This document shows positions 2,555 through 61,295 of a stretch of DNA of 64,000 nucleotides, piece after piece; position 1 is the stretch's first letter, and each line of letters starts with the position of its first letter. Position numbers and translations under genes: made by a program. Source of the stretch: Burkholderiaceae bacterium (lineage in GTDB: Bacteria; Pseudomonadota; Gammaproteobacteria; Burkholderiales; Burkholderiaceae_C); assembly GCA_038901755.1 (NCBI GenBank), contig JBCKPH010000001.1:2410-66409 (forward strand), written 5' to 3'. The notes under the pieces were generated by a model that saw only the letters and a list, made by a program, of their open reading frames with translations, was not told where the DNA came from and made no database searches.

Positions 2555-2556
2555 CC

Positions 2557-4458: not shown

Positions 4459-4470
4459 AGGGAGGAAATT

Positions 4471-4952: not shown

Positions 4953-4976
4953 TTGTCAAGAACTGTTTCCGAAGTC

Positions 4977-7611: not shown

Positions 7612-7678
7612 GGCGCGTCCACCTTGCGGGCAGTCTTTGATCTCGTAGCGAGCGTCCCAGTCCTTGTCGCAGCCATGA

Positions 7679-8926: not shown

Positions 8927-9063
8927 CGCAGAATACTAGCGCACTGCTTGGCATCGTCTTGATGCCCATGCCGTGGTGACATTTGTCATGTAGAGTCCAA
9001 GGAAAGTCAGTCGGCGACGTCAACGGGACTCGCAGGAGAACCTCGAGGTCGAAGGCTTCAGCA

Positions 9064-45467: not shown

Positions 45468-46505
45468 ATGACGTACAGATCGGTATTCCGCCCCGGCCTG
45501 TTCGAGCGCAAGGTCGTGCTGGTGACGGGGGGCGGTTCGGGCATTGGCCGCTGCACGGCGCATGAGCTGGCCGCGCTCGGCGCCCATGTCGTGCTGGTTG
45601 GGCGCAAGCTGGACAAGCTGCAAGCCGTGGCCGGCGAAATCGCTGCCGACGCAGCCGGCCAAGGCAGCGGAGTGAGTTTTCATGTTTGCGACATCCGGCA
45701 GGAAGACATGGTGCGTGACATGGTGGCAGCAGTCGTCGCCAGCCATGGCCAGATCGACGCATTGGTCAACAATGCCGGCGGCCAGTACATGGCGCCGCTG
45801 GAGCAGATCTCGGCCAAGGGCTGGGACGCGGTGCTGCACACCAATCTGACCGGCGGCTTCCTGATGGCGCGCGAGTGCTATCTGCAGTCCATGCAGCAGC
45901 AGGGCGGCGCCATCGTCAACATCGTTGCCGATATCTGGGGCTCGATGCCCGGCATGGGCCACAGTGGTGCGGCGCGCGCCGGCATGGTCAGCTTCACCGA
46001 GACGGCGGCGCTGGAGTGGGCCAAAAGCGGAGTCCGGGTGAACGCCGTGGCGCCGGGCTACATCGCCTCCAGCGGCATGGACCATTACCCGAGCGAGGCC
46101 GGCCCCCGGTTGCGCCAGATGAGCCAGACCGTGCCGGCAGGCCGCTTTGGCAACGAGGCCGAGACTGCGGCGGCGATTGTGTTCCTGCTTAGCCCGGCGG
46201 CGTCCTTCATCAGCGGCAGCGTGTTGCGGGTCGACGGCGCGCGGCCGCAGGTGCGCATGGGCTGGGGCCAGGTGGCCGCGCCCGCGGACGTGCAGCTGCG
46301 CGATGCGGTCAAGCCCTACGACGGGTTTCACCGGGCAGTGACGCCCAAAGTATTGAGGCAAGACCCTCACCCCTACCCTCTCCCGCAAGCGGGAGAGGGG
46401 GTTGATGTAACTTCTCCCTCTCCCTCCGGAGGGGAGCAGGAATCTTCTCCCTCCTCGTCCGGGACAGGGCGGGCACGTTCTCCCTCTCCCGGCGGGAGAG
46501 GGTAG
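45468..46505 (+). CDS. SDR-family oxidoreductase (AtuB / trans-2-enoyl-CoA reductase-like) with repeat-encoded C-terminal tail
   Basis: VVLVTGGGSGIGRC, SGAARAG. The last 47 aa and the TAG stop lie inside the repeat array 46364..46514. Confidence 0.85.
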   Translation: MTYRSVFRPGLFERKVVLVTGGGSGIGRCTAHELAALGAHVVLVGRKLDKLQAVAGEIAADAAGQGSGVSFHVCDIRQEDMVRDMVAAVVASHGQIDALVNNAGGQYMAPLEQISAKGWDAVLHTNLTGGFLMARECYLQSMQQQGGAIVNIVADIWGSMPGMGHSGAARAGMVSFTETAALEWAKSGVRVNAVAPGYIASSGMDHYPSEAGPRLRQMSQTVPAGRFGNEAETAAAIVFLLSPAASFISGSVLRVDGARPQVRMGWGQVAAPADVQLRDAVKPYDGFHRAVTPKVLRQDPHPYPLPQAGEGVDVTSPSPSGGEQESSPSSSGTGRARSPSPGGRG

Positions 46506-46514
46506 GGGTGAGGG
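46364..46514 (+). repeat. Hairpin-repeat array A (4 units, 151 bp) with inverted termini CCCTCACCCCTACCCTCTCCCGC / GCGGGAGAGGGTAGGGGTGAGGG
   Basis: Seen directly. CT-rich arms (C/G)TTCTCCCT recur at 46411, 46444 and 46477 (33-bp spacing). Confidence 0.85.
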
Positions 46515-46522
46515 CGACGACG

Positions 46523-48190
46523 ATGGCAATTTATCAATCATCGTGGAACCCGCAAAGTGGCGCGGCTCTGCAGCGCAGCCAGGCCATGAGCGAGCGTATC
46601 GCTCAGTTGCGAGCGCTGGAGCAGCGCGCGGCCCTTGCCTCGGCCAAATCGAAACCGGTGTTCGAGAAACGCGGCCAACTGCTGCCGCGCGAGCGAATCG
46701 CGCTGCTGCTGGACCCGGGCGCGCCCTGGCTGCCGCTTTGTTCGCTGGCCGGCTTCATGCAGGACGGCCACGAGGTGGCGAAATCGGTGCCCGGTGGCGG
46801 CATTGTGGCCGGCATCGGTTTCATCAGCGGCGTGCGCTGCATGGTGGTGGCGAGCGATTCGGGCATCGACGCCGGCGCGATGCAGGCCAAGGGGCTGGAC
46901 AAGATGCTGCGGGTGCAGGAGATCGCGCTGCAGAACAAGCTGCCGTTCGTGTTTCTGGTGGAGAGCGCCGGCGCCAACCTGATGCTGTACCGGGTCGAAG
47001 GCTTTGTCCAAGGCGGCGCCCTGTTTCGCAACCTGGCGCGGCTGTCGGCGGCCGGCCTTCCGGTGATCACCGTGCAGCATGGCTCGGGCACCGCCGGCGG
47101 CGCCTACATGCCGGGCCTGTCCGATGTGGTGATCATGGTGCGAGGCCGGTCCCGCGCCTTCCTGGCCGGGCCGCCGCTGCTGATGGCCGCCACCGGCGAG
47201 GTGGCGACCGAAGAGGAACTCGGTGGCGCCGAGATGCACAGCACCATCTCCGGGCTGGGCGAGTACCTGGCCGAGGACGACCGGCAGGCGCTGGGCATCG
47301 CTCGCGAAGTGGTGGCTCGCAGCGCCCTCACCGCAACCGTCACCCGGGGGGAGAGCAGGCAAGACGGACACCCTCTCCCGCTTGCGGGAGAGGGCAGGGG
47401 TGAGGGTCCCCAACCACCCTGCCACCCGGCCGATGGGCTGCTTGGCATCATGCCCGACAACCTGCGCGAGCCGCTCGACATGCGCGAGGTGATGGCGCGC
47501 ATCGTTGATGGCTCCGAGCTGCTGGAGTTCAAGGCGCTGTACGGCGCGCAGACGCTCTGCGTGCAGGCCGCGCTCGGTGGCTACTCAGTCGGCATCATCA
47601 GCAACAACGGGCCGATCGACGTCGCCGGAGCGAACAAGGCGACGCACTTCATCCAGTTGATGTGCCAGCAGGGTTCGCCGCTGATCTACCTGCAAAACAC
47701 CACCGGCTACATGGTCGGCAAGGAGAGCGAGCAGGGCGGCATGATCAAGCATGGCTCGAAGATGATCCAGGCGGTGACCAACGCCAGCGTGCCGCAGTTC
47801 ACCGTGATGTGCGGCGCCTCCTACGGCGCGGGCAACTACGGCATGTGTGGCCGTGCCTACGCGCCGCGTTTTCTGTTCAGCTGGCCGAGCGCGCGCACCG
47901 CGGTGATGGGTGGCGAACAGGCGGCGCGGACCATGCAGATCGTCACCGAGGCGGCGCTGCTGCGCAAGGGGCTGACTGTCAACCCGGCCGAATCGAAAAC
48001 GCAGTACGACAAGATCGTGGCGCGCTTCGAGTCCCAGGCCGACGCTTTCTACACCTCGGGCCTGCTGCTGGACGACGGCGTGATCGACCCGCGTGATACC
48101 CGCGATGTGCTGATCCAGTGCCTGCAGATGGCCGACGAAGCGGCGCGTCGCACGCTGCGGCCGATGCAGTTCGGGGTGGCCCGAATGTAA
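46523..48190 (+). CDS. Acyl-CoA carboxylase carboxyltransferase (beta) subunit, AtuC/LiuB/MccB-like
   Basis: Carboxyl_trans family (GQLLPRERI...GGAYMPGLSD...GASYGAGNYGMCGRAY). Start set to the ATG at 46523. Confidence 0.9.
   Translation: MAIYQSSWNPQSGAALQRSQAMSERIAQLRALEQRAALASAKSKPVFEKRGQLLPRERIALLLDPGAPWLPLCSLAGFMQDGHEVAKSVPGGGIVAGIGFISGVRCMVVASDSGIDAGAMQAKGLDKMLRVQEIALQNKLPFVFLVESAGANLMLYRVEGFVQGGALFRNLARLSAAGLPVITVQHGSGTAGGAYMPGLSDVVIMVRGRSRAFLAGPPLLMAATGEVATEEELGGAEMHSTISGLGEYLAEDDRQALGIAREVVARSALTATVTRGESRQDGHPLPLAGEGRGEGPQPPCHPADGLLGIMPDNLREPLDMREVMARIVDGSELLEFKALYGAQTLCVQAALGGYSVGIISNNGPIDVAGANKATHFIQLMCQQGSPLIYLQNTTGYMVGKESEQGGMIKHGSKMIQAVTNASVPQFTVMCGASYGAGNYGMCGRAYAPRFLFSWPSARTAVMGGEQAARTMQIVTEAALLRKGLTVNPAESKTQYDKIVARFESQADAFYTSGLLLDDGVIDPRDTRDVLIQCLQMADEAARRTLRPMQFGVARM
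47325..47406 (+). repeat. Hairpin-repeat array B (1 degenerate + 1 intact unit), ending CCCTCTCCCGCTTGCGGGAGAGGGCAGGGGTGAGGG
   Basis: Same terminal motif as arrays A and C. Left boundary is approximate. Confidence 0.75.
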
Positions 48191-48203
48191 TGAAAGCGCC
48201 AGG

Positions 48204-48380
48204 AAGTTTCGGTCGCTTCGCTCCCGCGATACTTTTGAGCGGTTTAAGTAGCGAAAAAGCTTGGGGGATTTGCCGGTGCGCCTGCGCCTGCGAAGCTGGG
48301 CAGCGTCGACAAATCAATGGTCGACCTACGCTATGCACGCATCGAGGCATTACGCTACGGTCGACCCCGGCGCTTTTTCG
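48204..48380 (+). repeat. Intergenic repeat, copy 1 (about 80-bp element split by a 98-bp insert at 48267..48364)
   Basis: 48204-48266 plus 48365-48380 align with 57401-57482 at roughly 75% identity (AAGTTTCG.TCGCT...GATACTTT...AAAAAGCTTGG...CCCGGCGCTTTTT). Confidence 0.6.
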
Positions 48381-48397
48381 AAAAATGGAGAACGCAA

Positions 48398-49591
48398 TTG
48401 AACTACACCCACGAACATCTTGAAATCCAGAAGACGCTGAAGCGCTACATCGACGAGCACATCAATCCCCACGTGGACGAATGGGAAGAGGCCGAGATGT
48501 TTCCGGCGCATGTAGTGTTCAAGGGGCTGGGCCAGCTTGGTCTGCTGGGCCTGACCAAACCCGAGGAGTATGGCGGCGCCGGGCTCGACTACTCGTACTC
48601 GGTGGCCATGGCCGAGGCGCTGGGCCATATCGACTGCGGTGGCGTGCCGATGGCGATTGGTGTGCAAACCGACATGGCCACACCTGCGCTGGCGCGCTTT
48701 GGCAGCGACGAGTTAAGGCGCGAGTTCCTGGCGCCGGCGATTGCCGGTGACATGGTGGGTTGCATTGGCGTCAGCGAGCCCGGCGCCGGCAGCGACGTGG
48801 CTTCCATCAAGAGTCATGCGCGCAAGGACGGTGACGACTACCTGATCAGCGGCCAGAAGATGTGGATCACGAACAGCCTGCAGGCGGACTGGATGTGCAT
48901 GCTGGTCAACACCGGCGACGGCCCGAGCGGAGCGGGCAACAATCCGCACAAGAACAAGAGCCTGGTGATGGTGCCGATGCGGGATGGCCCGAACGGCAAG
49001 CTCACCAAGGGCATCGAGGTGGCGCGCAAGATTCGCAAGATCGGCATGAATTCCAGCGACACCGGCCTGATCTACTTCGACGAGGTGCGGGTGCCGCAAC
49101 GCAATCGCATCGGCGCCGAGGGCTCGGGCTTCATCTACCAGATGATGCAGTTTCAGGAGGAGCGACTTTGGGCCGCTGCCAAGGCCCTGCTTTCGCTGAA
49201 CAAGCTGATCGAAGTCACGGTCGAATGGGCGCAGCAGCGCAAGCTGTTTGGCGCCACGCTGGCCGATCAACAGTGGGTGCAGTTCAAGCTGGCCGAGGTC
49301 AAGACCGAGGTCGAATGCCTGCGCGCGCTCACCTACCGGGCCTGCGACCTCTATGTGTCGGGCCAGGACGTGACCGAACTGGCTTCCATGGCCAAGCTCA
49401 AGGCCGGCCGGCTTGGGCGCGAGGTGGCCGACACCTGCCTGCAGTTCTGGGGCGGCATGGGCTTCACCTGGGAGAACAAGGTGTCGCGCGCCTACCGCGA
49501 CGGCCGACTCGGCTCCATCGGCGGCGGCGCCGACGAGGTGATGCTGGGCATCATCGCGAGGTACATGGGCATGGCAAAGAAACGCCCATGA
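48398..49591 (+). CDS. Acyl-CoA dehydrogenase (AtuD/LiuA-like)
   Basis: ACAD family. Start set to a TTG at 48398, 7 nt after a GGAG, giving MNYTHEHLEIQKTL. Confidence 0.85.
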   Translation: MNYTHEHLEIQKTLKRYIDEHINPHVDEWEEAEMFPAHVVFKGLGQLGLLGLTKPEEYGGAGLDYSYSVAMAEALGHIDCGGVPMAIGVQTDMATPALARFGSDELRREFLAPAIAGDMVGCIGVSEPGAGSDVASIKSHARKDGDDYLISGQKMWITNSLQADWMCMLVNTGDGPSGAGNNPHKNKSLVMVPMRDGPNGKLTKGIEVARKIRKIGMNSSDTGLIYFDEVRVPQRNRIGAEGSGFIYQMMQFQEERLWAAAKALLSLNKLIEVTVEWAQQRKLFGATLADQQWVQFKLAEVKTEVECLRALTYRACDLYVSGQDVTELASMAKLKAGRLGREVADTCLQFWGGMGFTWENKVSRAYRDGRLGSIGGGADEVMLGIIARYMGMAKKRP

Positions 49592-51753
49592 AGCGCTTGC
49601 TGATCGCCAACCGCGGCGAAATCGCCCGCAGGGTGATCCGCAGCGCGCACCGAATGGGCATCGAAACCGTTGCGGTGTATTCCGACGCCGACTCCAGCGC
49701 GCTGCATGTGGCCGAGGCGACAACGGCCTTTGCGCTGGGCGGCAACGCCTCGGCCGACAGTTACCTGCGCATCGACCGGCTGCTCGAAGCCGCGCGCGCC
49801 ACCGGTGCCGACGCGGTGCACCCGGGATATGGCTTCCTGAGTGAAAACGCCGGCTTCGCCCAGTCCGTGCTGGATGCCGGTCTGACCTGGGTCGGCCCGC
49901 CGCCCGCCGCCATTCGGGCCCTGGGCAACAAGGCCAGCGCCAAGCAGTTGGCACAGCGGCTGGGCGTAGCCTGCCTGCCTGGTTACCAGGGCGAGGACCA
50001 GACGGACGCGCGTTTTGCCGCCGAGGCGCGAAGAATAGGCTATCCGGTGATGGTCAAGGCCAGCGCCGGCGGCGGTGGTCGTGGTATGCGGCTGGTCGGC
50101 AGCGCCGAGCACTTGTCTGCCGCCTTGCAGGGCGCGCGCTCCGAGGCGTCAAGCAGCTTCGGCAGCGCTGAACTGCTGATCGAACGCGCCTTGCTGGACC
50201 CGCGCCATGTCGAGGTGCAGGTGTTCGCCGATGCGCATGGCCACTGCATCCATCTGGGTGAGCGCGACTGTTCGGTGCAGCGGCGGCATCAGAAGATCAT
50301 CGAGGAGTCGCCCAGCCCGGCGGTCGATTCAGCGCTGCGCGAGGCCATGGGCCAATGCGCCGTGAAGCTGGCGCTCGCGGCAGGCTATGTGGGTGCGGGA
50401 ACGGTGGAGTTTCTGCTCGAGGCGAGCCCTCACCCCAACCCTCTCCCGGAGGGTGAGGGGGTCCGAAGCAACCTCCCTTTTCCGGAGGGTGAGGGGGTCC
50501 GAAGCAATCTTCCTCTCCCGGATAGAGAGGGGGTCCGAAGCAACCTCCCTTTTCCGGAGGGTGAGGGAGTCCGAAACAGTCTTCCTCTCCCGGATAGAGA
50601 GGGCGTCAAAAACAATCTCCCTCTCCCGCTTGCGGGAGAGGGTAGGGGTGAGGGCATCTGTGAGTTCTTCCTGATGGAAATGAACACCCGGCTGCAGGTG
50701 GAGCACCCGGTGACGGAATTGCTGACCGGCCTGGACCTGGTGGAGTGGCAGTTGCGCATCGCGCGCGGCGAGCCGCTGCCGCTGACGCAGGAGCAGGTGC
50801 GGTGGCAGGGCCATGCGATCGAGGTGCGGCTCTGCGCCGAGGACGAAAACTTCGCGCCGCACTCGGGCCTGGTCCGGCAGTTCCAGGCGCCCGAGGGGGT
50901 GCGCTTCGACCACGCCCTGCACCAGGACCTGGCGGTGCCGCCCTATTACGACTCGATGCTGGGCAAGATCATCAGCCACGGGCTGGACCGCGCCCAGGCC
51001 ATCGCGCGGCTGCGCGCCGCGCTGGCCCAGACCCTTGTGCTGGGCCTGCCGACGAATCGAGGATTTCTGGACGCCTGTCTGGCGCATCCGCAGTTTGTTG
51101 CTGGCGAAGCGCGGATTCCGTTCCTGGCGAACCAGGCCGGCGCCCTGCGTGAGCAACTTCAACAGCGGGAGCGGCGCTTGTTGTTGCCTTGCGTGGTGGC
51201 GCTGCTCTACATGGATGCGCCGGCGACGGGCACCGGCCTGCCATGCCCATTTGCCAGGCCCGCGAAAGTGCGTTGGCGCGACCAGTTGTTGGCCCTATCG
51301 GTGCTGGAGCTCGGGCCAGGCCTGCTGCGCGTCGAGTCAGAGGGGCGGCGGCATGATGTGCTGTGGACGCGCCAGGATGCGGGGTTGCTGCGGGTTACGC
51401 TGGACGGGTTGAGGCACCAGGTTGCCGCCGTGCGGCTGGACGTTCAGCGCTGGCATCTGCAATGCGATGGCGTTGAACTCTGGTTGGAAGACGCGTCCTT
51501 CGAGCCGGCGATACAGGCGGGCGGCTCTCGTGCGACAGACGAACTGCGGGCGCCGTTCAACGGCAAGTTGATCGCGCTACCTGCCAGCGCCGGCCTCTCG
51601 CTGCGCCGCGGCGACCCGCTTGCCGTGATCGAATCGATGAAACTCGAGCATGCGCTATGCGCGCCGCGCGACCTGACTGTCAAGACCCTGTCGGTGCAAG
51701 TCGGCCAGCAGGTCGCGACGGCGCAGTTGCTGATGACCTTCGAACCGGCATGA
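49588..51753 (+). CDS. Acyl-CoA carboxylase biotin carboxylase + BCCP (alpha) subunit, AtuF/LiuD/MccA-like, carrying a 76-codon repeat insertion
   Basis: MKRLLIANRGEIA, MVKASAGGGGRGMR, EMNTRLQVEHPVTE, and the biotinyl-Lys motif IESMKLEH. ATGA overlaps at both ends. Confidence 0.9.
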   Translation: MKRLLIANRGEIARRVIRSAHRMGIETVAVYSDADSSALHVAEATTAFALGGNASADSYLRIDRLLEAARATGADAVHPGYGFLSENAGFAQSVLDAGLTWVGPPPAAIRALGNKASAKQLAQRLGVACLPGYQGEDQTDARFAAEARRIGYPVMVKASAGGGGRGMRLVGSAEHLSAALQGARSEASSSFGSAELLIERALLDPRHVEVQVFADAHGHCIHLGERDCSVQRRHQKIIEESPSPAVDSALREAMGQCAVKLALAAGYVGAGTVEFLLEASPHPNPLPEGEGVRSNLPFPEGEGVRSNLPLPDREGVRSNLPFPEGEGVRNSLPLPDREGVKNNLPLPLAGEGRGEGICEFFLMEMNTRLQVEHPVTELLTGLDLVEWQLRIARGEPLPLTQEQVRWQGHAIEVRLCAEDENFAPHSGLVRQFQAPEGVRFDHALHQDLAVPPYYDSMLGKIISHGLDRAQAIARLRAALAQTLVLGLPTNRGFLDACLAHPQFVAGEARIPFLANQAGALREQLQQRERRLLLPCVVALLYMDAPATGTGLPCPFARPAKVRWRDQLLALSVLELGPGLLRVESEGRRHDVLWTRQDAGLLRVTLDGLRHQVAAVRLDVQRWHLQCDGVELWLEDASFEPAIQAGGSRATDELRAPFNGKLIALPASAGLSLRRGDPLAVIESMKLEHALCAPRDLTVKTLSVQVGQQVATAQLLMTFEPA
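50427..50654 (+). repeat. Hairpin-repeat array C (6 units, exact 36-bp period, 228 bp) with inverted termini
   Basis: The linker (TCCGAAGCAA in the first three copies, TCCGAAACAG and TCAAAAACAA in the last two) starts at 50462, 50498, 50534, 50570 and 50606. Termini are CCCTCACCCCAACCCTCTCCCG / CGGGAGAGGGTAGGGGTGAGGG. Confidence 0.9.
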
Positions 51754-53009
51754 GCGATTCGACGATGAACCCATCAGGCGATGCTGCGGCAGCCTTGCGC
51801 GAGGACATCGTCGCCCTGACCGACACGGTGCGGCGCTTTGCCTTGAGCGAGGTCGCGCCCCACGTGGAAGCCTGGGAGGAAGCTGGCGAGATACCGCGCG
51901 CGCTGTACCGCAGGGCCGCCGAACTGGGCCTGCTTGGCCTGGGTTACCCGGAGTCGCTGGGCGGCACGCCGGCACCGTTTGCGCTGCGCCATGCGATGTC
52001 GGTGACGCTGAGCCGCTACGGCGGCAGCGGCGGTCTGATGGCCAGTCTGTTTTCGCTCAACATCGGCCTGCCGCCGCTGCTGCGTCATGGCAGCGCGGCG
52101 CTGCAGCAGGAAATCGTGCCGCCGGTGCTGCGTGGCGAAAAAATTGCCGCGCTGGCTATCACCGAGCCGGGCGGCGGATCCGATGTAGCCAGCATCCGCA
52201 CTACCGCCAGGCGCGAAGGCGATGACTATCTGATCAACGGCGAAAAGACGTTCATCACCTCGGGCATGAGGGCCGACTGGATCACCATGGCGGTGCGCAC
52301 CGGCGAGCCGGGCAGCAAGGGCGAAGAAGGAAGCGCGCACAAGGACGAGAGCAACAACCCGCACAAGGGTGAGAGCAGCAACGCGCACCGAGGCGCGCGA
52401 GGCATTTCGATGATCGTTGTTCCCGGCGCTGCGCTGGGCCTGAGCCGCAGCGCGCTGCGCAAGATGGGTTGGTGGTGTTCCGACACGGCGCACCTGCGCA
52501 TGGACAACATGCGGGTGCCGGCGCGTTACCTGCTTGGGGAAGAGGGCGGCGGCTTCAAGATCATCATGAGCAATTTCAACGGCGAGCGGCTCGGCATGTC
52601 GGCCATGGCGCTGGGTTTTTCCCAGGCCTGCTACGACGAGGCGCTGGACTGGGCACGCCAGCGCCAGACCTTCGGCGTGGCGTTGGTCCAGCACCAGGTG
52701 ATCCGCCACAAGCTGGTCGACATGCAAATGCGCATTGCATCGACCCAGGCCTGGCTGGACGCGGTGACGGCGCGCCTGGACGCGGGCGACAGCTCGCCCG
52801 ACTGGGTGGCCCAGGTCTGCATGCTGAAGAACCACGCGACGCAGGCCATGCAGTTCTGCGCCGACCAGGCGGTGCAGATCCTGGGCGGCATGGGTTTCAT
52901 GCGCGGCACCCGCAGCGAGCGCATCTACCGCGAGGTCAAGGTCATGATGATTGGCGGCGGCGCCGAGGAAATCATGAAGGAACTGGCCGCGCGCCAACTC
53001 GGAATCTAG
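51750..53009 (+). CDS. Acyl-CoA dehydrogenase
   Basis: ACAD family (ITEPGGGSD...). ATGA overlap with the alpha subunit gene. Contains an in-frame 24-nt tandem repeat. Confidence 0.85.
   Translation: MSDSTMNPSGDAAAALREDIVALTDTVRRFALSEVAPHVEAWEEAGEIPRALYRRAAELGLLGLGYPESLGGTPAPFALRHAMSVTLSRYGGSGGLMASLFSLNIGLPPLLRHGSAALQQEIVPPVLRGEKIAALAITEPGGGSDVASIRTTARREGDDYLINGEKTFITSGMRADWITMAVRTGEPGSKGEEGSAHKDESNNPHKGESSNAHRGARGISMIVVPGAALGLSRSALRKMGWWCSDTAHLRMDNMRVPARYLLGEEGGGFKIIMSNFNGERLGMSAMALGFSQACYDEALDWARQRQTFGVALVQHQVIRHKLVDMQMRIASTQAWLDAVTARLDAGDSSPDWVAQVCMLKNHATQAMQFCADQAVQILGGMGFMRGTRSERIYREVKVMMIGGGAEEIMKELAARQLGI
52335..52388 (+). repeat. In-frame tandem repeat, 24-nt unit, about 2.3 copies
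   Basis: GCGCACAAGGACGAGAGCAACAAC / CCGCACAAGGGTGAGAGCAGCAAC match at 20 of 24 positions, followed by GCGCAC... The repeat encodes AHKDESNN-PHKGESSN-AH. Confidence 0.6.
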
Positions 53010-53010
53010 G

Positions 53011-53499
53011 ATGCCCATGTCCAAACAAGTCGTTGCCAGCGTCGAATTCGAGCCCGCGTTTATCGCCGCGCTGAGGCAGATCTTTGAAGAGATGATTCCG
53101 TTCAACCGGCTGCTCGGGCTGCGGGTCACCCAGATCGCGCCCACTGGGGTGAGCGCCAGCATCAGCATGAAACCCGAGCTGATCGGCCACGTCGGCCAGC
53201 AGCGGCTGCATGGCGGCGTTATCAGTGCCGGACTTGACACCATGGGAGGCCTGGCCATCATGGCCGCGATCGGAGCCAGGCACATGGATGAGCCGGTGCT
53301 GAAACGGATGGAGCGTTGTCAGCGCATCAGCACCATCGACCTGCGTGTCGATTACCTGCGGCCAGGCCTGGGCCAGACCTTCGAGCTGCGCGGCCAGGTG
53401 CTGCGGCTCGGCTCGCGCGTGGCCAGCACCCGCATGGAGTTCCTGGGTTCCGATGGCCAGTTGTTGTCCGCGGGCAGTGGCGCCTACATGGTCTCCTGA
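53011..53499 (+). CDS. PaaI/YigI-type hotdog-fold thioesterase
   Basis: ...RLHGGVISAGLDTMGG...STIDLRVDYLRP... Confidence 0.8.
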   Translation: MPMSKQVVASVEFEPAFIAALRQIFEEMIPFNRLLGLRVTQIAPTGVSASISMKPELIGHVGQQRLHGGVISAGLDTMGGLAIMAAIGARHMDEPVLKRMERCQRISTIDLRVDYLRPGLGQTFELRGQVLRLGSRVASTRMEFLGSDGQLLSAGSGAYMVS

Positions 53500-53596
53500 C
53501 AGCCGGTCGATTGCGTTGGTGACAGGGCCGGCGGCAGGTCCCCGATAACATCTGGCTTTCCCAGGTCGAGCGGGCGCCGCCTGCCTGACCCATTGC

Positions 53597-54184
53597 ATGG
53601 AGAACCGCATGGCGCTGAGCGCGGCAACACCCCGAAAACATATTCATCGCCGCAACATCGAATTCCACGGCTACCTGCGCGACGATGGCCTGTGGGACAT
53701 CGAGGCCGAGCTGAAGGATGTGCGGGACTATGCCTACCGCTCGCGCGACAGCGGCGAGAAACCCGAGGCGAGCATGGTGCACAACATGCTGCTGCGGGTC
53801 ACGGCGGACGACCAGATGACGGTGATCGCGATTGAAACCGGCATGCCGGCGACGCCGTTTTTGGAATGCTCCCAGGTCCAGGACCCGATGCAAAAACTTG
53901 TCGGCGCGCGCCTGGGCAGTGGCTGGCGCCGCACCATCGACGCAGCCATCGGCGGCGTCAACGGCTGCACGCACATGCGCGAGCTGCTGTTCAACCTGGC
54001 GACGGCGGCGTTTCAGACCGTGCCGGTCTATCGCATGCACCAGCGGCGGGACCAGGGGCTGCCGCTGCCGCGCTTCAGCAAGCCACCGCCGCATTTTGGC
54101 AAATGCATGTCGTGGGACTTCAATGGCCCGGTCATGCAGCGGGTGGCGCCCGAGTTCTACCGCTGGAGCGAGCCGAAGGAGTAG
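53597..54184 (+). CDS. DUF2889-domain protein
   Basis: IHRRNIEFHGYLRDDGLWDIEAEL...GVNGCTHMRELL pattern. Confidence 0.7.
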   Translation: MENRMALSAATPRKHIHRRNIEFHGYLRDDGLWDIEAELKDVRDYAYRSRDSGEKPEASMVHNMLLRVTADDQMTVIAIETGMPATPFLECSQVQDPMQKLVGARLGSGWRRTIDAAIGGVNGCTHMRELLFNLATAAFQTVPVYRMHQRRDQGLPLPRFSKPPPHFGKCMSWDFNGPVMQRVAPEFYRWSEPKE

Positions 54185-54246
54185 GCTTTTCGTTCGCTGT
54201 GGCTCGCCGCCACGGCAACGCTTGCTCGAACCGGCCGGCCAGAAAA

Positions 54247-54268
54247 AAGCCGCCCCGAGGGGCGGCTT
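54247..54268 (-). terminator. Intrinsic terminator between convergent genes (T-tract on the minus strand)
   Basis: AAGCCGCCCC-GA-GGGGCGGCTT. On the minus strand the stem is followed by TTTTTT. Confidence 0.6.
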
Positions 54269-54292
54269 GGTCAGCGGTCCTGCGCTTGGCGA

Positions 54293-55468
54293 TCAGTTGG
54301 CGTATTCGGTGAGGACTTTCCATTTGCCGCCCTGGATTTGCGACAGGCGGGACTGATTGAACGCCTGGCGCTTGTTGGGGCCGTAGCCGGATTCCATGGC
54401 GCCGAAGATGTCGCTGGGGAACTTGACGGTTTCCAGCGCCTTGACGAAGTTGTCGCTGGTCAGGTTCGGCCCTGCCTTCTGCGCCGCCACGATCACGGTC
54501 TCGATCGCCTGGTAACCATAGATCGAGAACACGGTGGGTTCCTCGTTGAACTTGGTCTGGTACTTGGTGGCCCAGAAACGCAGGGGCTGCGAAGCGTCGT
54601 CCAGGTAGGGGTTCTGCACCGTCATGGCCGAATACAAACCCTCCATGGCCTGCCGGCCCAGCTTGTGGATCAGGTCGGTGTAGACCGCTTGGGAACCGAG
54701 GAAAACCGGGTTGAAGCCGGTCTTGCGGCTTTCACCGATGGTGCCGATGGTCTCGCGGATGATGGTGCCGAGGATCACCATGTCGCAACCGGCCGCCTTC
54801 ATGCGCGCCACCTGCGACGAGAAGTCGGTCGCGCCGGTCTTGAAGGTGGTCTTCTCGGCCAGCGTCATGTTCATGGTCTTCAGGCCCGCTTCGGCACCGG
54901 AGGCCACCTCCTGACCGAAATCGTCATCCTGGACGATGCTGCAGACCTTCTTGACCCCCTTTTCCTTGGCCAGCCTGGGCACAAAGACCCGCATCTGGTC
55001 GAAGTAGCTGGGCCCAGGGGCGAACTTGAGTTTGTGGAAGGGCTCGTACATCTGTTGCGAGGCCGTGATCGGGAAGATGTTCGGCACGCCCTTGGCGAAC
55101 TGGATCGGCATCGTCGCCAGATTGTTGGTGGTGCCGATATGCGCGACCATGGCGAATATCTTGTCCTGGTTCACCAGTTTCTGCGCTGCCAGCACGGCCT
55201 TCTTCGGGTCGTACTGCGAATCCTCGATCAGCAGCTTGATCTTGCGGCCATGAATGCCGCCGGTCTGTTCGTTGAGTTCATCAACGCGCAGTTGCATGCC
55301 GAACCGGACCTGCTTGCCAAAGGCGGCAATCGGCCCAGACAGGTCCTGGATCGAGCCGATCAGGATTTCATTCTTGCTGACGCCCTGGGTCGGCGTGGCT
55401 TTCTGCGCCAGGGCGAGGCTGCTGGCAAGGGACAGCGCGACCAGGGCTGCGGCGGTCTTTAGTTTCAT
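54293..55468 (-). CDS. ABC transporter substrate-binding protein (LivK/Peripla_BP_6 type)
   Basis: Signal peptide MKLKTAAALVALSLASSLALA. AGGAGA ribosome-binding site. Trimmed from 55516. Confidence 0.85.
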   Translation of the reverse strand: MKLKTAAALVALSLASSLALAQKATPTQGVSKNEILIGSIQDLSGPIAAFGKQVRFGMQLRVDELNEQTGGIHGRKIKLLIEDSQYDPKKAVLAAQKLVNQDKIFAMVAHIGTTNNLATMPIQFAKGVPNIFPITASQQMYEPFHKLKFAPGPSYFDQMRVFVPRLAKEKGVKKVCSIVQDDDFGQEVASGAEAGLKTMNMTLAEKTTFKTGATDFSSQVARMKAAGCDMVILGTIIRETIGTIGESRKTGFNPVFLGSQAVYTDLIHKLGRQAMEGLYSAMTVQNPYLDDASQPLRFWATKYQTKFNEEPTVFSIYGYQAIETVIVAAQKAGPNLTSDNFVKALETVKFPSDIFGAMESGYGPNKRQAFNQSRLSQIQGGKWKVLTEYAN

Positions 55469-55527
55469 GGTGTCTCTCCTGTTGAAAAGTGGTGGTGGTG
55501 GAACGGTGGCAATCATGTTATCAGCGG

Positions 55528-57384
55528 CTAGCGGTACATCGCGTCAATTTGCGCCGCGTACTTCTTCTCGACCAGTTTTCGTTTCAGCTTCATGGTCGGT
55601 GTCAACTCTTCGTCCTCGGCGCTCAACTGGGTATCGAGCAGGAAGAACTTCTTCATCTGCTCGACCCGGGCAAACTTCTTGTTGACCCGCTCCATTTCGG
55701 CGTGGATCAATTCTTGCACTTCCTTCGATTTGGTCAAGCTGGCGTAGTTGCTGAAGGGCACATCGTTGTCCTGGGCGAACTTTTCGACGTTTTCCTGGTC
55801 GATCATGATAATCACCGTCAGGTAGGGGCGCTTGTCGCCCACCACCACGGCGTCCGTGATGTAGGGCGAGAACTTCAGCTCGTTTTCAAGTTCACTGGGG
55901 GTGATGTTCTTGCCGCCCGCGGTGATGATGATGTCCTTCATGCGGTCGATGATGCGAAAGTAGCCGTCCTGGTCCATGGTGCCGACGTCTCCGGTATGCA
56001 GCCAGCCGTCCTGGTCGATCGTCTCGGCGGTTTTCTCCGGCTGGTTCAGGTAGCCCATGAACACATTGGGTCCGCGGATCAGCAGCTCGCCGGTCTGGGC
56101 GTCCACCCGCACTTCGATGCCGTCGGTGGCCCGGCCAACGGTGCCTGGGCGTATCCCATCCACATTGGTGAAGGTTCCGAGCGCGCCAGATTCGGTCTGG
56201 CTCCAGACCTCCAGCATCGGGATGCCCAGCGCCAGGTACCAGCGGATCAGCTCGGGCGAAATCGGCGCGGCGGCCGACAGCAGGGCGCGGGCGCGGTGGA
56301 TGCCGATCATCTTGCGCACGTTGTTCAGCGCCAGCCAGCGGCCCAGCTCGAACTTGAACTTCAGCATGGCGCCGACTGGCTGGCCGGCAAGAATCTTGTC
56401 GGCGACCTGGCCCCCGACGCCGATGGCCCAGCCGTAGGCCAGTTGCTGCAGCGCCGACGCTTCCTTGATGCCGATGATGACGCCTGAATAAAACTTCTCC
56501 CAGACCCGCGGCACGGCGAACAGAAAGGTTGGCGCAATTTCGCGCACGTTCTCCGGAATCGTGTCAGGGTTCTCGACGAAGTTGAGCGTGCTGCCGGTAT
56601 AGACCGAGGAATACTCGCCGGCCAGCCGCTCGGCAATGTGGCACAGCGGCAGGAAGCACATGCGTTCGTCCAGTTCCATCGCGGGGACGTGAACGTTGGC
56701 CTGGCGCACGCTGAAGACCATGCCGGCATGGCTCTGCATGGCGCCCTTGGGCTTGCCGGTGGTGCCCGAGGTATAGACCAGGATCGCCAGGTCCTCGGGA
56801 CGGATGGCGGCAATGCGCTGCTCGATCACCTGCGGCTGCTGCTGCAACCAGGCGCGGCCCGCTTCACGCAGGGCAGCGAGCGACATCACGCCAGGATCGT
56901 CCAGGTCGCGCAGCCCCTCCATGTCGAACACGACAATCTTTCGCAGGCGGGGCAGTTGCGCGCGCACCTCGAGCACCTTGTCGAGCTGCTCCTCGTCCTC
57001 GGCGAACAGGATCGTGCTGCCCGAGTCCTCGCACAGGTAATGCACCTGCCCGACCGCGTCGGTTGGGTAGATGCCGTTGGTCACGCCGGCGCAGCTGAGA
57101 ATCGCCATATCGGTCCAGACCCATTCGATTGCCGTGTTGGCCAGGATCGAGGCGCGTTCGCCGGGTGCAAACCCCAGGCTCAGCAGGCCACCGGCAATCT
57201 CGCGCACCGCCACGGCGGCCTGGTCCCAGGTCCAGCTGTGCCAGATGCCAAACTTCTTCTGCCGCAGCCAGACCTTCGGACCGCGCGCGGCGACCGCGTT
57301 CCAGAACATGCGCGGCAGCGTGTCGCCGGCCATTTGCACCGCCGTGTTGGGCTGGTACTGGGTCAGTGTCCAGAGGTTGCTCAT
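55528..57384 (-). CDS. Long-chain-fatty-acid--CoA ligase (AMP-binding family)
   Basis: YTSGTTGKPKGA AMP-binding motif. 618 aa. Confidence 0.9.
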   Translation of the reverse strand: MSNLWTLTQYQPNTAVQMAGDTLPRMFWNAVAARGPKVWLRQKKFGIWHSWTWDQAAVAVREIAGGLLSLGFAPGERASILANTAIEWVWTDMAILSCAGVTNGIYPTDAVGQVHYLCEDSGSTILFAEDEEQLDKVLEVRAQLPRLRKIVVFDMEGLRDLDDPGVMSLAALREAGRAWLQQQPQVIEQRIAAIRPEDLAILVYTSGTTGKPKGAMQSHAGMVFSVRQANVHVPAMELDERMCFLPLCHIAERLAGEYSSVYTGSTLNFVENPDTIPENVREIAPTFLFAVPRVWEKFYSGVIIGIKEASALQQLAYGWAIGVGGQVADKILAGQPVGAMLKFKFELGRWLALNNVRKMIGIHRARALLSAAAPISPELIRWYLALGIPMLEVWSQTESGALGTFTNVDGIRPGTVGRATDGIEVRVDAQTGELLIRGPNVFMGYLNQPEKTAETIDQDGWLHTGDVGTMDQDGYFRIIDRMKDIIITAGGKNITPSELENELKFSPYITDAVVVGDKRPYLTVIIMIDQENVEKFAQDNDVPFSNYASLTKSKEVQELIHAEMERVNKKFARVEQMKKFFLLDTQLSAEDEELTPTMKLKRKLVEKKYAAQIDAMYR

Positions 57385-57400
57385 AGCGGGGCTCGTCGCA

Positions 57401-57482
57401 AAGTTTCGCTCGCTGGCGCTCGCACGATACTTTGCACCGGATTAGTCAGCAAAAAAGCTTGGAGCGGCCCGGCGCTTTTTTG
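57401..57482 (+). repeat. Intergenic repeat, copy 2 (uninterrupted), with A6/T6-flanked hairpin and a minus-strand promoter-like TTGCTG-17 nt-TATCGT
   Basis: Hairpin CAAAAAAGC(57450-58)/GCTTTTTTG(57474-82). -35 box at 57447-57452 and -10 box at 57424-57429, read on the minus strand. Confidence 0.55.
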
Positions 57483-57505
57483 ATGATAGAAGATACCGGA
57501 AGAGT

Positions 57506-58303
57506 TTATCGCCATGTCTTCTTCTTCTTCCAGCGCCGCTCGCCACGCACGCCCACTTCTTTCATGCCGAGGTAGAACTCCTTGATGTCTTCCTTCTCGC
57601 GCAGCTTGGCGCAGGTGTCTTCCATCACGATGCGGCCGTTCTCCAGCACGTAGCCGTAGTCGGCTGCGTTCAGCGCCATATTGGCGTTTTGCTCGACCAG
57701 CAGGATGGTGGTGCCGCGTTCGCGGTTGATGCGAACCACGATCTCGAAAATTTCCCGGGTCAACTTCGGTGACAGACCCAGACTGGGCTCGTCGAGCAGC
57801 ATCAGATCGGGCGCGGCCATCAACGCGCGTGAAATCGACAGCATCTGCTGCTCTCCGCCCGACAACAGGCCGGCGTTCTGGCCCGAGCGCTCGCGCAGGA
57901 TGGGAAAGTAGGCGAAGACCAGCTCCATGTCTTTTGCCATCGCGTCCCGGTCGGAACGGGTGTAGGCCCCCATCAGCAGGTTGTCGCGCACCGACAGCAG
58001 GGGAAACACCTCGCGGCCCTCGGGCACATGACTGATGCCCTGCTGCACGATGAATGCCGGGTCGCGCGCCGTGATGTCCTGCCCCTTGAACTCGATCGAA
58101 CCGCGGCGTGGGTCGATGATGCCCGAGATGGTCTTGAGAATGGTGGTCTTGCCGGCGCCGTTGGAGCCAAGCACGGTGGCGATTTCGCCGCGACGCACCT
58201 GCAGGCTGGCGCCGCGGATCGCCTTGATCGGTCCATAGGCGCTCTCGACATTAAGCAGGCGCAGCACCGGCTGGTCGCTGACCGGGGGTGGCGAGGCGCT
58301 CAT
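57506..58303 (-). CDS. livF: ABC transporter ATPase (LivF-like) with basic C-terminal tail
   Basis: GSNGAGKTT, LSGGEQQML. Trimmed to the ATG at 58303. Ends ...RGERRWKKKKTWR. Confidence 0.85.
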   Translation of the reverse strand: MSASPPPVSDQPVLRLLNVESAYGPIKAIRGASLQVRRGEIATVLGSNGAGKTTILKTISGIIDPRRGSIEFKGQDITARDPAFIVQQGISHVPEGREVFPLLSVRDNLLMGAYTRSDRDAMAKDMELVFAYFPILRERSGQNAGLLSGGEQQMLSISRALMAAPDLMLLDEPSLGLSPKLTREIFEIVVRINRERGTTILLVEQNANMALNAADYGYVLENGRIVMEDTCAKLREKEDIKEFYLGMKEVGVRGERRWKKKKTWR

Positions 58304-58309
58304 ATCTGG

Positions 58310-58336
58310 CTTTCTCCCTGCCGGAGGGAGAGGGAA
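58310..58336 (-). repeat. Solo hairpin unit of the CT/GA repeat family (minus strand TTCCCTCTCCCTCCGGCAGGGAGAAAG)
   Basis: Resembles unit 2 of array A (TTCTCCCTCTCCCTCCGGAGGGGAGCAGG). Lies in the 46-bp livG-livF spacer. Confidence 0.5.
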
Positions 58337-58349
58337 CAAAACACCAGGC

Positions 58350-59147
58350 TCATGCTGTCCTCCTGAGCGAGGTCACGTCATCGACCGAGCCGAGGTAGGC
58401 TTCGATGACGCCAGGGTCGTCCCGCACCTCGGCCGGCGTCCCCATGGCGAGCATGGCGCCCTGGTTCATCGCCAGCACCCGGTCCGACACCTTGGAGACC
58501 AGGCTCATGTCGTGCTCGACCATCAGCACAGTGATGCCCAGCTCGTACTGAATGTCCTTGATCCAGAACGCCATGTCGCCGGTTTCCTCGACGTTCAGGC
58601 CCGAGGACGGCTCGTCCAGCAGCAACAGCTTCGGGCCGGTCGACAAGGCTCGCCCCAATTCCACCACCTTGCGCACGCCGTAGGGCAGACCGGCCACCAT
58701 CGAGTCGCGGTAATGTTGCAGGTCGAGCAGGTCGATCACCTGCTCGACTTTTTCCCGCGCCTCGATTTCGGCAGCGCGCGTCTTGGCCGTGAAGAAGATT
58801 TCGCTCCACAAGCTCGTGCTGCGGTGTGTATGGCGCCCGACCAGCAGGTTGTGCAACACCGAGGCGTGTTCGAACAGCTCGATGTTCTGGAAAGTGCGCG
58901 CAATGCCCAGCGTTGCAATCTGGTGCGGAGGCTCTCTCGTCAAGTTGCGGCCTTCGAAATAGATCTCGCCCGCGCTCGGCGTGTAGAGCCGGCTGATCAG
59001 GTTGAACACCGTGGTCTTACCTGCGCCGTTCGGCCCGATCAGCGTGAACACCTCGCCGCGCTTCACTTCAAAGCTCACGTTGTCAACCGCCAGCACGCCG
59101 CCAAAGCGCATGCTCAGGTTCCTGGCCGAAAGCAGGGTTTCGCTCAT
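58350..59147 (-). CDS. livG: ABC transporter ATPase (LivG-like)
   Basis: [11 protein letters not shown], and SSGLN in place of the signature motif. Confidence 0.85.
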
Positions 59148-60220
59148 GACAGTCGATCAGACTTCTGGAATGTCTTCTGCCGCTTGAACATGCCCTTGCG
59201 GTAGAACGGAAACAACTGCAGGTAAGCGCGCATCTTGAGCCAGCGGCCGTACATGCCCATCGGCTCGAACAACACGAAGGCGATCAGGATGACGCCGAAC
59301 ACCACGCCCTGCAATCCTGGCGCATCGCCGACCACCGCCGGCAGGTAGCCCTTCGACAAAGCGATCAATTGCGGTACGCTGATGACAAAAATGGCGCCGA
59401 GAAACGCGCCATGCACTGAGCCGAGCCCGCCGACCACGATCAACAGCAGCAATTCGATTGACTGCAGCAGACCGAACTGCTCGGGCGAGAGGAACTTGAA
59501 GTTGTGCGCGTACAGCGCGCCGGCAATACCAGTCATCGCCGCCGACAGCGCAAACGAGGTTGTCTTGTAGCGCGCCAGGTGCACGCCCATGCTCTGCGCC
59601 GACACCTCGGAATCGCGAATCGCGACAAAGGCGCGGCCAGTGGAGGAGCGCAGCAGATTCAGGATCGCGAGCGTGCACAACACCGTCAGCAGCAAGCACA
59701 GGTAATAGAACTCCTCGCCGCTGTCCAGTTTCCAGCCAAAAATGTCGGGGGCTTTGACGTGCATTCCCTTGCTGCCGCCGGTCACACTGTCCCAGCGCGC
59801 AAACACCTCTTCCACGATAAAGCCGAAGGCCAGGGTGGCTATGCCCAGATAGATTCCCTTGACGCGCAGCGCCGGTAGCGCGACCACGATGCCTACCGCG
59901 GTCGACAGGCCGGCGGCGATGGCCAGCGCAAGCGGAAAGGGCAGACCCATGTTGGTCATCACGGCGTGGGTGTAGGCGCCGACCCCGAGGAAGGCGGCGT
60001 GACCAATCGAGAACTGGCCGGTGAACCCCGCCAGCAGCATCAACCCCAGGCCGGCGATCGAGAAGATCAGCACAAAGGTGAGTTGCGCCAGCCAGTATTC
60101 GGCAATCACCCAGGGAGCGGCCAGCAGCGCCAGCATCAGCAGCGAGTACCAGAACTTGTGCCCGCCATGCTTGGCGAGCCGGAGGTCCTGCTCGTAGTCG
60201 GTCTTGAAGATGAAGCGCAT
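59144..60220 (-). CDS. livM: ABC transporter permease (LivM-like)
   Basis: Polytopic membrane protein. Trimmed to the ATG at 60220. Confidence 0.85.
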
Positions 60221-60302
60221 GTCAGCCGACGCCGGGCCGCCCCAAGGCGGCTGAACGCCCCCTCGGGGGGCAGCGAACAATGTGAGCGTGGGGGCCCATG
60301 TT

Positions 60303-61178: not shown

Positions 61179-61295
61179 CCGGTATTCCCGTCCTTGAATA
61201 GAGCAATGCTGTCGTTTATAACCAGCGGCGGCCAGACTGTCCTCGGGATGTACCCTAGGGCAAGGGAAACTCCCAACGTCCTGAAAGGCAGAGCC

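Follow-up and report, generated by a model that had tools for sequence, protein, structure and literature searches.

Why should consecutive genes of one metabolic operon carry repeated palindromic sequence inside their reading frames, and how old is that sequence? The question is raised by a stretch of 64,000 nucleotides (nt) from a Burkholderiaceae bacterium (contig JBCKPH010000001.1), referred to below, at its full length, as the window. It contains an acyl-CoA carboxylase operon whose five genes encode an SDR protein, a carboxyltransferase (CT), an acyl-CoA dehydrogenase (ACAD1), a biotin carboxylase (BC) and a second acyl-CoA dehydrogenase (ACAD2). Three elements of one repeat family, E1, E2 and E3, and an unrelated 24-nt tandem repeat at 52336-52388 affect four of the five genes (Table 1). 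A sequence-only reading had attributed this to local spread of the arrays or to selection for them here. The explanation favoured here, at a probability of roughly 0.78, is that the elements are old insertions of the BoxC/TM family, tolerated at permissive sites, translated and unstable, with no recent burst.

Repeat units and family identity

The unit common to the three elements is 33-37 nt long and is built of three blocks, CCCTCTCCC-loop-GGGAGAGGG-nn-GGGGTGAGGG. The core CCCTCTCCCGNNNNCGGGAGAGGG (at most 3 mismatches) is matched at 46376, 47371 and 50619 only, where 0 matches are expected from 100 shuffles, and the end GGGTAGGGGTGAGGG is matched at 46364(-), 46500, 47392, 50427(-) and 50640, where shuffles give an expectation of 0.1. 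Complete three-block units occupy 46364-46399(-), 46482-46514, 47371-47406, 50427-50459(-) and 50619-50654; the form CCCTCTCCC-GCTTGC-GGGAGAGGG-TA-GGGGTGAGGG and its variants are thus seen at five termini, and the internal units of E3 and E1 retain two blocks only. Each element is bordered by inverted units, CCCTCACCCC-nn-CCCTCTCCCG ... CGGGAGAGGG-nn-GGGGTGAGGG, with arms that are 95-100% complementary, and as single-stranded DNA the elements fold at -53 (E1), -25 (E2) and -55 (E3) kcal/mol, with z = -7.4, -3.4 and -3.2 against shuffles. Together with the Pfam identities of the genes, the shuffle-tested core and end matches bear out the earlier claim of a single repeat family that is translated in several of the operon's genes.

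When the whole 64 kb was scanned more loosely, no copy emerged beyond E1-E3, save a weak two-block hairpin at 58310, which had been counted as a solo member of the family. This membership survives only in part: the hairpin has two blocks and 7 base pairs, with z = -0.9, but it lies in a spacer that has no counterpart in orthologs. The G-arm GGGAGA (minus strand) falls at the expected ribosome-binding site of the downstream gene. The two flanking ABC-ATPase genes overlap by 4 nt in the orthologous loci L125, L126, L127 and L128, and because they do so without a spacer, the hairpin is probably a degenerate junction insertion.

By sequence, the units are the BoxC / PIT / TM (TMECO) intrastrand triplex motif. 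In 1690 E. coli genomes, copies such as the one in the nrdA-nrdB spacer match them at 94% identity over 36 nt; the unit is also matched in plasmids of several genera, and the exact 30-nt pattern occurs in genomes of more than 15 phyla among the matches listed. The blocks are identical to those of TMECO (PMC4666352, Table 1) and to the G4 motif dGGGAGAGGG(TTA/CC)GGGTGAGGG of PMC5100583. They also follow the order described for the motif, namely a pyrimidine block, a complementary purine block and a mirror purine block of 9-10 nt with loops of 1-6 nt, and inverted tandem pairs are present, as E1 and E3 are bounded by inverted units and a 48-nt E3 allele is a perfect palindrome. The family is therefore a pan-bacterial motif and not a local phenomenon. 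Rfam gave no match between 44 and 59 kb at E <= 1, and has no model of the unit. By analogy with the published motif, the unit could adopt a hairpin, an intrastrand triplex or a G-quadruplex fold, of which only the hairpin was computed here.

Several other families were considered and rejected. For REP/REPIN, the 5' GTAG tag is missing; GTAG lies 3' of the stem in three of the six termini, the others having GCAG or GTTG, and the orthologs have GCTG, GCGG or GTAG-A. The sequence is not found in the supplements to the GTAG/CGTC REP families of Di Nocera et al. Inverted termini of the kind seen in a MITE are present, but comparison of filled and empty sites revealed no flanking direct repeat at E1, E2 or E3. 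As for BRE, neither GGGAGAGGG nor CCCTCTCCC occurs in the published BRE list, and the BRE core GCCCCCTCGGGGGGCAGC...AGCGTGGGGG is not in E1-E3, being found only at window position 60257 and in BC inserts of Polaromonas. The window copy is a BRE-like unit (GCCCCCTCGGGGGGCAGC core ... AGCGTGGGGG) at 60241-60296, in the spacer between two branched-chain ABC permease genes; the same permease spacer has BRE-core matches at 21332 in L128 and at 19031 in L132, both Polaromonas-type loci, which suggests that this intergenic copy is either old or functional.

Insertion sites and translation

Alignment with orthologs indicates that BoxC/TM units entered the geranyl-CoA-carboxylase-like operon at three places in an ancestor of the present Comamonadaceae lineage: the SDR/CT junction, a CT linker and a BC hairpin turn. 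As most frames of the unit are stop-free and the internal repeat, at 36 nt, is divisible by three, the inserts would be translated. Four of the six frames are free of stops in the 48-nt E3 founder and in E2, three of six in E3 and, in E1, both minus-strand frames only; the earlier remark that the arrays are open in several frames is confirmed at these values. Alignments, solved structures and an AlphaFold2 (AF2) model place the inserts where an extra disordered peptide rich in Pro, Gly and Glu would be structurally harmless, their surface location resting on the model and on alignment to the solved structures.

E1 is a gene-junction insertion that was turned into a C-terminal SDR tail, since SDR orthologs (294-298 aa, ending PKV(L/F)Q(T/S)) terminate before E1, with an overlap into the start of CT. 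The SDR frame of the window continues from about 46362 for 48 aa through E1 to a TAG within GGGTAGGGG (46503-46505), by which E1 supplies the SDR stop. Its last bases, GAGGG, are Shine-Dalgarno-like and lie 8 nt before the CT ATG at 46523. E1 had been described as lying within the SDR gene; it is translated there as a 48-aa tail, but stands outside the conserved SDR, at the junction with CT. E2 sits in the inter-domain linker of CT, a segment whose length and sequence differ in every ortholog and in 5IKL_B, the nearest solved structure.

E3 has a left unit (C-end plus hairpin), four internal 36-nt hairpin-plus-spacer units that alternate as A and B, and a right unit (hairpin plus G-end); it amounts to 5.3 copies of the 36-nt unit, and the alternation gives a higher-order period of 72 nt at 90% identity. 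Its translation, PHPNPLPEGEGVRSN...LPLPLAGEGRGEG, is flanked by GTVEFLLEA and FFLMEMNTRLQVEHPV. In the alignment it stands in place of residues 286-288 of 3U9S, the beta-hairpin turn between ...GTVEFLL and FFLMEMNTRLQVEHPV in the ATP-grasp domain. The AF2 model of BC gives residues 280-357 a pLDDT of ~26 and no secondary structure, with confident strands at 270-277 and 360-366 on either side, and the E3 peptide is predicted to be disordered. From published biotin carboxylase structures, we take the strands on both sides of this turn to bear the ATP-grasp Mg-ATP ligands.

A 76-aa insert between two strands of the ATP-grasp active-site sheet, along with lineage-specific insertions in four of five genes, might be expected of an operon under relaxed selection and at the onset of pseudogenisation. 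Such decay is very improbable: dN/dS over the five genes is 0.14 against the sister strain L004 and 0.13 against L002, from which it follows that the insert-bearing genes are under purifying selection; the open reading frames (ORFs) are intact in all four or five assemblies; and the BC catalytic-motif columns are all conserved in the ortholog alignment. The sister strains constitute a natural allelic series of 16-, 64- and 76-aa inserts, usable for testing how well an ATP-grasp hairpin tolerates disorder.

Age of the insertions

The idea of a recent local spread does not survive comparison with L125, a metagenomic contig whose BC is 76% identical to that of the window. E1, E2 and the founder unit of E3 are found at orthologous positions in this lineage; the cluster therefore predates the split and is not a recent local burst. 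L125 has a 151-nt element of E1 architecture directly 5' of CT, although the lineage is without the SDR gene, and its E2 is orthologous but longer, with three hairpins. It also has a unit at the ACAD1/BC junction, and single units at BC site 1 and in a second loop ~280 nt downstream. No element was found in ~10 kb of L125 flanks, and neither of two other orthologous loci, L126 and L127 (the second from Caenimonas soli), carries one. Between distant lineages, conservation is higher in the terminal units than inside the elements.

A pairing of units within BC is seen in L125 (10870-10902 and 11152-11184) and in L128 (10867-10901 and 11148-11180), where inverted left-type and right-type units lie in two BC loops ~280 nt apart. 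The pairs (C-end plus hairpin; hairpin plus G-end) bracket the segment encoding the catalytic MEMNTR motif.

That the elements were kept over a deep split, with highly conserved terminal units, could also mean that they are adaptive. At the protein level, they would serve as a tunable loop by the ATP-grasp active site or as assembly tails and linkers; at the RNA or DNA level, as hairpins that set mRNA stability, translation and stoichiometry, or as a copy-number contingency switch. The stop codon and Shine-Dalgarno-like GAGGG that E1 provides for the next gene, the copy-number variation that is always in-frame and the purifying selection on the host genes would agree with such a role. It is nonetheless improbable, as orthologs are mostly without an insert and presumably functional, inserts at the same loop are unrelated in sequence between lineages, and a 36-nt unit gives in-frame changes automatically; moreover, among the tests cited in PMC4666352, none found a promoter, terminator or expression role for the E. 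coli PIT/TM elements. In the favoured explanation, old insertion followed by toleration, the elements would persist through tolerance at their sites and not through usefulness.

Variation between strains

Three sister assemblies, L002, L003 and L004, are 97-99% identical to the window but consist of short draft contigs of 13-19 kb; a further assembly, GCA_038902115.1, encodes the exact BC protein on a contig that matches window 48297-61753 at 100% identity. The lengths of E1 and E2 do not vary between strains (E1 being the same length in L002 and L004). The E3 allele of the window, in comparison, has 228 nt, that of L002 192 nt and those of L003 and L004 48 nt; the 48-nt allele is a perfect palindrome, PHPYPLPLAGEGRGEG. 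Nested in this founder palindrome, the internal 36-nt modules form an array of variable number, which grows and shrinks by steps of 36 or 72 nt. The repeat region of ACAD2 likewise measures 109, 133 or 157 nt depending on the strain, corresponding to 1 to 3 or more units. The polymorphism in unit number that the sequence-only reading had proposed to look for is thus present at both E3 (48, 192 or 228 nt) and the ACAD2 repeat (1 to at least 3 units).

Mis-assembly of the arrays or of their copy numbers would offer another account, given that the sister contigs are short and that two contig ends coincide with another repeat family. This is hardly credible for the elements themselves: three independent assemblies agree base for base on E1 and E2, allele-specific substitutions are present in the E3 units, and unrelated assemblies, from metagenomes and isolates, contain orthologous elements, leaving the presence of the elements largely secure. 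In practical terms, arrays of the E3 type break short-read assemblies.

E2 and E3 are points at which substitution tracts start or stop. Substitutions per kb upstream and downstream of E3 are 6 vs 36, 8 vs 36 and 9 vs 20 in the three sister strains, a jump of 2-6 fold (Fisher p = 2e-6, 2e-5 and 0.06, respectively); since many of the downstream differences are common to all three sisters, it is the window strain that holds a divergent tract bounded at E3. A tract of 17 changes in L002 begins inside E2 and reaches ~330 nt downstream, and the L002 E2 itself has a patch of changes towards the family consensus, with a left hairpin nearer to the consensus than that of the window. Such signs of exchange (the consensus patch, the density jump at E3 and the tract from E2) are what remains of the earlier proposal of template switching or gene conversion between arrays. 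The flanks are variable between strains in the manner described for the family, as judged by the copy-number alleles, the density jump and the E2 tract, at two loci only. Once present, the elements may behave as local instability sites, acting as hotspots of slippage and recombination.

Two further differences between the strains were noted. Over window 53000-55400, which covers thioesterase, DUF2889 and binding-protein genes, divergence from L004 is 20-30% per 400 nt and drops after ~55.4 kb; this is a mosaic recombination tract 3' of the operon. In L003, positions 1-378 contain 378 nt of ACAD1 (window 48530-48907) inverted beside the rest of the gene, which is either a rearrangement or a mis-assembly.

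The biotin carboxylase loop as a recurrently occupied site

The BC loop was surveyed in the best 119 homologs, ranked with the insert-containing query and so biased towards insert-bearing sequences. A native turn of 4-9 residues is found in 81 of the 119 and an insert in 38. Among the inserts, 20 are BoxC/TM (PHPxPLPxGEG) and 16 BRE-like (...PPGGSxxHxVxSVG), with 2 of these being both, and 4 are other; none of 300 shuffles aligns as well to the published BRE core as the BRE-like insert does. Fitch parsimony requires a minimum of 10 state changes for BoxC/TM and 13 for BRE-like inserts, on a crude neighbour-joining (NJ) tree of insert-masked proteins. In L132, BRE copies directly follow a BoxC unit, and in L131 a CCCTCTCC remnant precedes BRE, suggesting that behind some of the apparent gains there may be a single old insertion, with later insertion and decay at the site. 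In the orthologous loci, which were chosen for their BC inserts, the coding insertions of either family all lie in the operon and the flank copies are all intergenic. A further coding insertion of BRE in the operon was noted in L131 at 5564-5582, where the core lies inside a Polaromonas-type CT gene (574 aa vs ~547 aa) at a third site, near residue 97.

Repeated filling of one loop raises the possibility of targeted insertion, in which a DNA-level signal directs BoxC/TM units and BRE to the BC hairpin-turn codons and to ATGA-type junctions, so that clustering reflects target preference. Two unrelated families have come to occupy one BC loop in many lineages (at least 10 and at least 13 state changes); three junction insertions are known (E1, the ACAD1/BC junction of L125 and the ABC-ATPase spacer of the window); REPs occupy the same recB site in two Xanthomonas species (PMC3733652); and the L132 BRE copies adjoin a BoxC unit as though an existing repeat draws the next. 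Even so, targeting is considered unlikely, if worth keeping in view. Neither a target-site duplication nor a shared target motif is visible when filled and empty sites are compared, and the sample is biased to insert-bearing homologs. The L131 remnant beside BRE, in addition, allows some "independent gains" to be one old insertion with decay, loss or recombinational transfer.

Clustering and occurrence in other genomes

Figures on clustering are drawn from the 64-kb window, the orthologous loci and 8-kb segments of other genomes. Three bona fide elements within 4.3 kb of 64 kb have P ~0.013 for uniformly placed points, by our own post hoc arithmetic. Among the matches listed in other genomes, 120 family-positive 8-kb segments comprised 97 with one element, 19 with two, 3 with three and 1 with four. 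The clustering had been presented as special to this operon; all bona fide copies in the window do lie there, and at least three elements occur in just 4 of the 120 segments (~3%), but the arrangement is not unique.

Translated copies are also found elsewhere. At least 122 pattern matches in other genomes were surveyed, with an open frame taken as at least 80 codons on each side and 20 cases checked by Pfam. Open frames contain 35 of the 122 listed matches, and at least 10 of the 20 checked cases are in-frame insertions with domain matches on both sides. The hosts are UvrA, IleRS (two genomes), a TPP enzyme, MurD, a 2-oxoacid dehydrogenase E2 acyltransferase, transketolase, UDP-GlcNAc 2-epimerase, a TonB-dependent receptor and DUF4838. 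The sequence-only reading had named copies at the same density everywhere, many other ORFs included, as the outcome that would undo its proposal; across genomes this is partly what is seen, with at least 10 of 122 sampled units in-frame elsewhere. An Ottowia sp. metagenome-assembled genome (L067, positions 1-5523) was observed to encode one 1841-aa UvrA-like ORF with four BoxC/TM elements, recalling the uvrA genes repeatedly hit by REPs.

Expanded arrays behave differently in searches. HMMER with the 80-aa E3 peptide against 1.84 billion representatives gave 79 matches, mostly unrelated eukaryotic 12-aa tandem or low-complexity repeats; true relatives are few, for example the alpha/beta hydrolase P0134 with a C-terminal array. 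It follows that expanded translated arrays are rare, single units being too short for this method. Clustering in the window may be explained by old inherited insertions, few permissive sites and a BC loop that acts as a recurrent sink for two unrelated palindromic families.

Some points weigh against this explanation by age and tolerance. Conservation of the terminal units could reflect selection on DNA or RNA structure, or homogenisation by gene conversion, and assembly error could account for part of the copy-number differences, which come from short draft contigs of 13-19 kb. The parsimony counts depend on the crude NJ tree and on a homolog list obtained with an insert-bearing query, and a pure selective filter ill explains why one surface loop among many is so often hit. 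That the tolerance is neutral is something we infer, and translation of the inserts is deduced from ORFs and dN/dS only. A broader proposal, put at long odds, is that BoxC/TM is more than tolerated in genes and is preferentially captured at certain beta-hairpin turns and gene junctions, giving heritable, fast-varying disordered loops and recombination breakpoints in core metabolic and DNA-repair enzymes. If true, protein-length polymorphism and intragenic mosaicism would have a general mechanism that operates across phyla, with the BC loop as a tunable element.

The tandem repeat of ACAD2

The 24-nt repeat comprises 2.2 copies by Tandem Repeats Finder. As had been claimed, it is unrelated to the array family: it is not palindromic (z = 0.1), bears no relation to BoxC and is a separate phenomenon, a coding minisatellite in its own right that occupies an equivalent surface loop. 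The insert that contains it falls between GSK and GxxGIS, where PDB entry 3OIB is without residues. At the homologous middle-domain loop, ACAD1 has a 6-aa lineage-specific insertion, SGAGNN, with no palindrome. ACAD1 48938-48952 and ACAD2 52353-52367 have 14 of 15 nt in common (AACAAYCCGCACAAG, encoding NNPHK) within extra sequence that is lineage-specific in both genes, and it is a possibility that ectopic conversion between the two paralogs took place and then seeded the 24-nt repeat.

Gene context

Table 1. Coordinates of the operon genes, repeat elements and related features in the window.
Feature	Position	Strand	Description
SDR gene	45468..46505	+	345 aa; Pfam adh_short / adh_short_C2
E1	46364..46514		151-nt composite BoxC/TM: two inverted terminal units and two degenerate internal hairpins
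Carboxyltransferase (CT, beta subunit)	46523..48190	+	555 aa; Pfam Carboxyl_trans
E2	47325..47406		82 nt; degenerate left unit and intact right unit; translated LTATVTRGESRQDGHPLPLAGEGRGEG
ACAD1 (acyl-CoA dehydrogenase)	48317..49591	+	Pfam; without BoxC unit
Biotin carboxylase/BCCP (BC, alpha subunit)	49588..51753	+	721 aa; Pfam; orthologs mostly ~645 aa
E3	50427..50654		228-nt, 76-aa array in BC
ACAD2 (acyl-CoA dehydrogenase)	51750..53009	+	Pfam; PDB alignment
ACAD2 insertion	52320..52391	+	24 aa, lineage-specific; middle-domain loop; contains the 24-nt tandem repeat
Spacer between two ABC-ATPase genes	58304..58349		46 nt; holds the degenerate two-block hairpin 58310-58334

The operon has the components of an atu/liu-type acyl-CoA carboxylase operon, namely a CT and a BC/BCCP of the MCC/GCC clade, ACAD genes and TetR, and by homology it is geranyl-CoA-carboxylase-like. 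The CT structure named above, 5IKL_B, is the beta subunit of geranyl-CoA carboxylase (E = 9e-165, PDB), the nearest for BC is the P. aeruginosa MCC alpha subunit 3U9S, and BC homologs carry the JGI name geranyl-CoA carboxylase alpha. Named homologs suggest that the source lineage belongs to the Comamonadaceae. The gene order TetR-SDR-CT-ACAD-BC-ACAD-4HBT (thioesterase) is conserved across the Comamonadaceae loci compared. The five genes had been taken for a single translationally coupled operon, which agrees with the ATGA overlaps at the ACAD1/BC and BC/ACAD2 junctions, but not with the 17 nt that separate the SDR stop from the CT start or the 126 nt between CT and ACAD1. The first 27 aa of the ACAD1 ORF are probably untranslated.

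The CT-ACAD1 spacer contains a third repeat family of ~75 nt, AAGTTTCGSTCGCT...CGATACTTT....CGG.TTA.T.AGC.AAAAAGCTTGG. Its copies at 48205-48270, in this spacer, and at 57400-57465, 5' of an acyl-CoA synthetase gene, are 78% identical, and the latter is missing in strain L003. As contig ends of L001 and L002 fall at copies of this family, a multi-copy element in the genome is suggested.

Farther away, window 28895-29583 holds ~4.6 tandem copies of a 126-nt unit, 68-78% identical, which probably encode a 42-residue TPR/Sel1-type repeat protein on one strand. Window 1-10000 has a GC content of 0.46-0.60, vs 0.60-0.69 in the remaining window, and is a polysaccharide-synthesis cluster (flippase-like, methyltransferases, GT4 glycosyltransferase, asparagine synthase-like, DegT aminotransferase, hexapeptide acetyltransferase and GFO oxidoreductase genes), likely a horizontally exchanged O-antigen or exopolysaccharide locus. 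No transposase that could serve as mobiliser was seen in window 1-10000 or among the window ORFs examined, a single window being uninformative on the rest of the genome.

Comparison with known systems

BoxC/PIT/TM was reportedly described by Bachellier in the 1990s and by Hoyne & Maher in 2000 and 2002, and we know of no transposase for BoxC. For ~30 years the family has stood as purely intergenic and of unsettled function, while protein-coding palindromes were known for RPE, REP and BRE.

The E. coli copies listed by Holder 2015 include CCCTCTCCCTGTGGGAGAGGGCCGGGGTGAGGGC; the motif forms a class II intrastrand triplex in vitro and is found in more than 260 genomes. In E. coli it is "always located intergenically", often as inverted pairs; it has no transposon association, and inter-strain variability around the motif is far above that of control spacers (PMC4666352). 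Kaplan 2016 described the same G-rich arm as a G-quadruplex-hairpin-duplex switch, again only intergenic in E. coli (PMC5100583). The elements of the operon resemble these in their three blocks, unit length, inverted pairs, cross-phylum spread and local strain variability. They differ in location, as E2 and E3 lie inside a linker or a conserved domain and E1 is read through; here the motif is translated in-frame inside conserved enzymes and its hairpin module has grown to a 36-nt coding minisatellite. No paper reporting an in-frame coding insertion for BoxC/TM was found in the literature.

What is new is BoxC/TM translated inside conserved enzymes in many phyla, expandable to coding minisatellites and marking the borders of divergent tracts within genes, along with one enzyme loop that serves as a recurrent sink for two unrelated families. 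In annotation and structure prediction, low-confidence loops rich in Pro, Gly and Glu are to be expected from BoxC/TM.

Rickettsia palindromic elements (RPEs) were reportedly described by Ogata et al. in 2000 and 2002. These elements occur in coding sequence (PMC10969869), and intragenic GTAG/CGTC REPs are known in which REP ends contribute TAG stops, clusters encode 43-82 aa and uvrA is multiply hit (Di Nocera 2013, PMC3733652). As in both systems, the palindromes seen here lie in-frame in unrelated housekeeping genes, at loops and termini; the dN/dS values suggest that the host genes stay functional. Repeat ends likewise donate stops, clusters encode tens of residues, and uvrA and tRNA synthetase genes are repeatedly hit. 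The sequence family is unrelated, however, with no canonical 5' GTAG or CGTC tag, and whereas an RPE measures 100-150 bp and is limited to Rickettsia, the BoxC/TM unit is pan-bacterial.

BRE, the Betaproteobacterial repeat element, shares several features with the family. It occurs in Comamonadaceae (most in Polaromonas), forms tandem arrays of variable copy number and fills the same BC loop in Polaromonas-type orthologs, and some copies lie wholly within coding sequences (Hot et al. 2011, PMC3110155). With a ~90-nt unit and a GCCCCCTCGGGGGGCAGC core, it is not the family of the operon. Coding minisatellites, or variable-number tandem repeats, offer a last parallel: the 24-nt ACAD2 repeat and the 36-nt E3 units change copy number in-frame between strains, but in cytoplasmic metabolic enzymes, unlike the classical contingency loci of surface and virulence genes. 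Set against these systems, the locus is a well-resolved case of protein-coding palindromes, instructive but with precedent, from a family so far described as intergenic.

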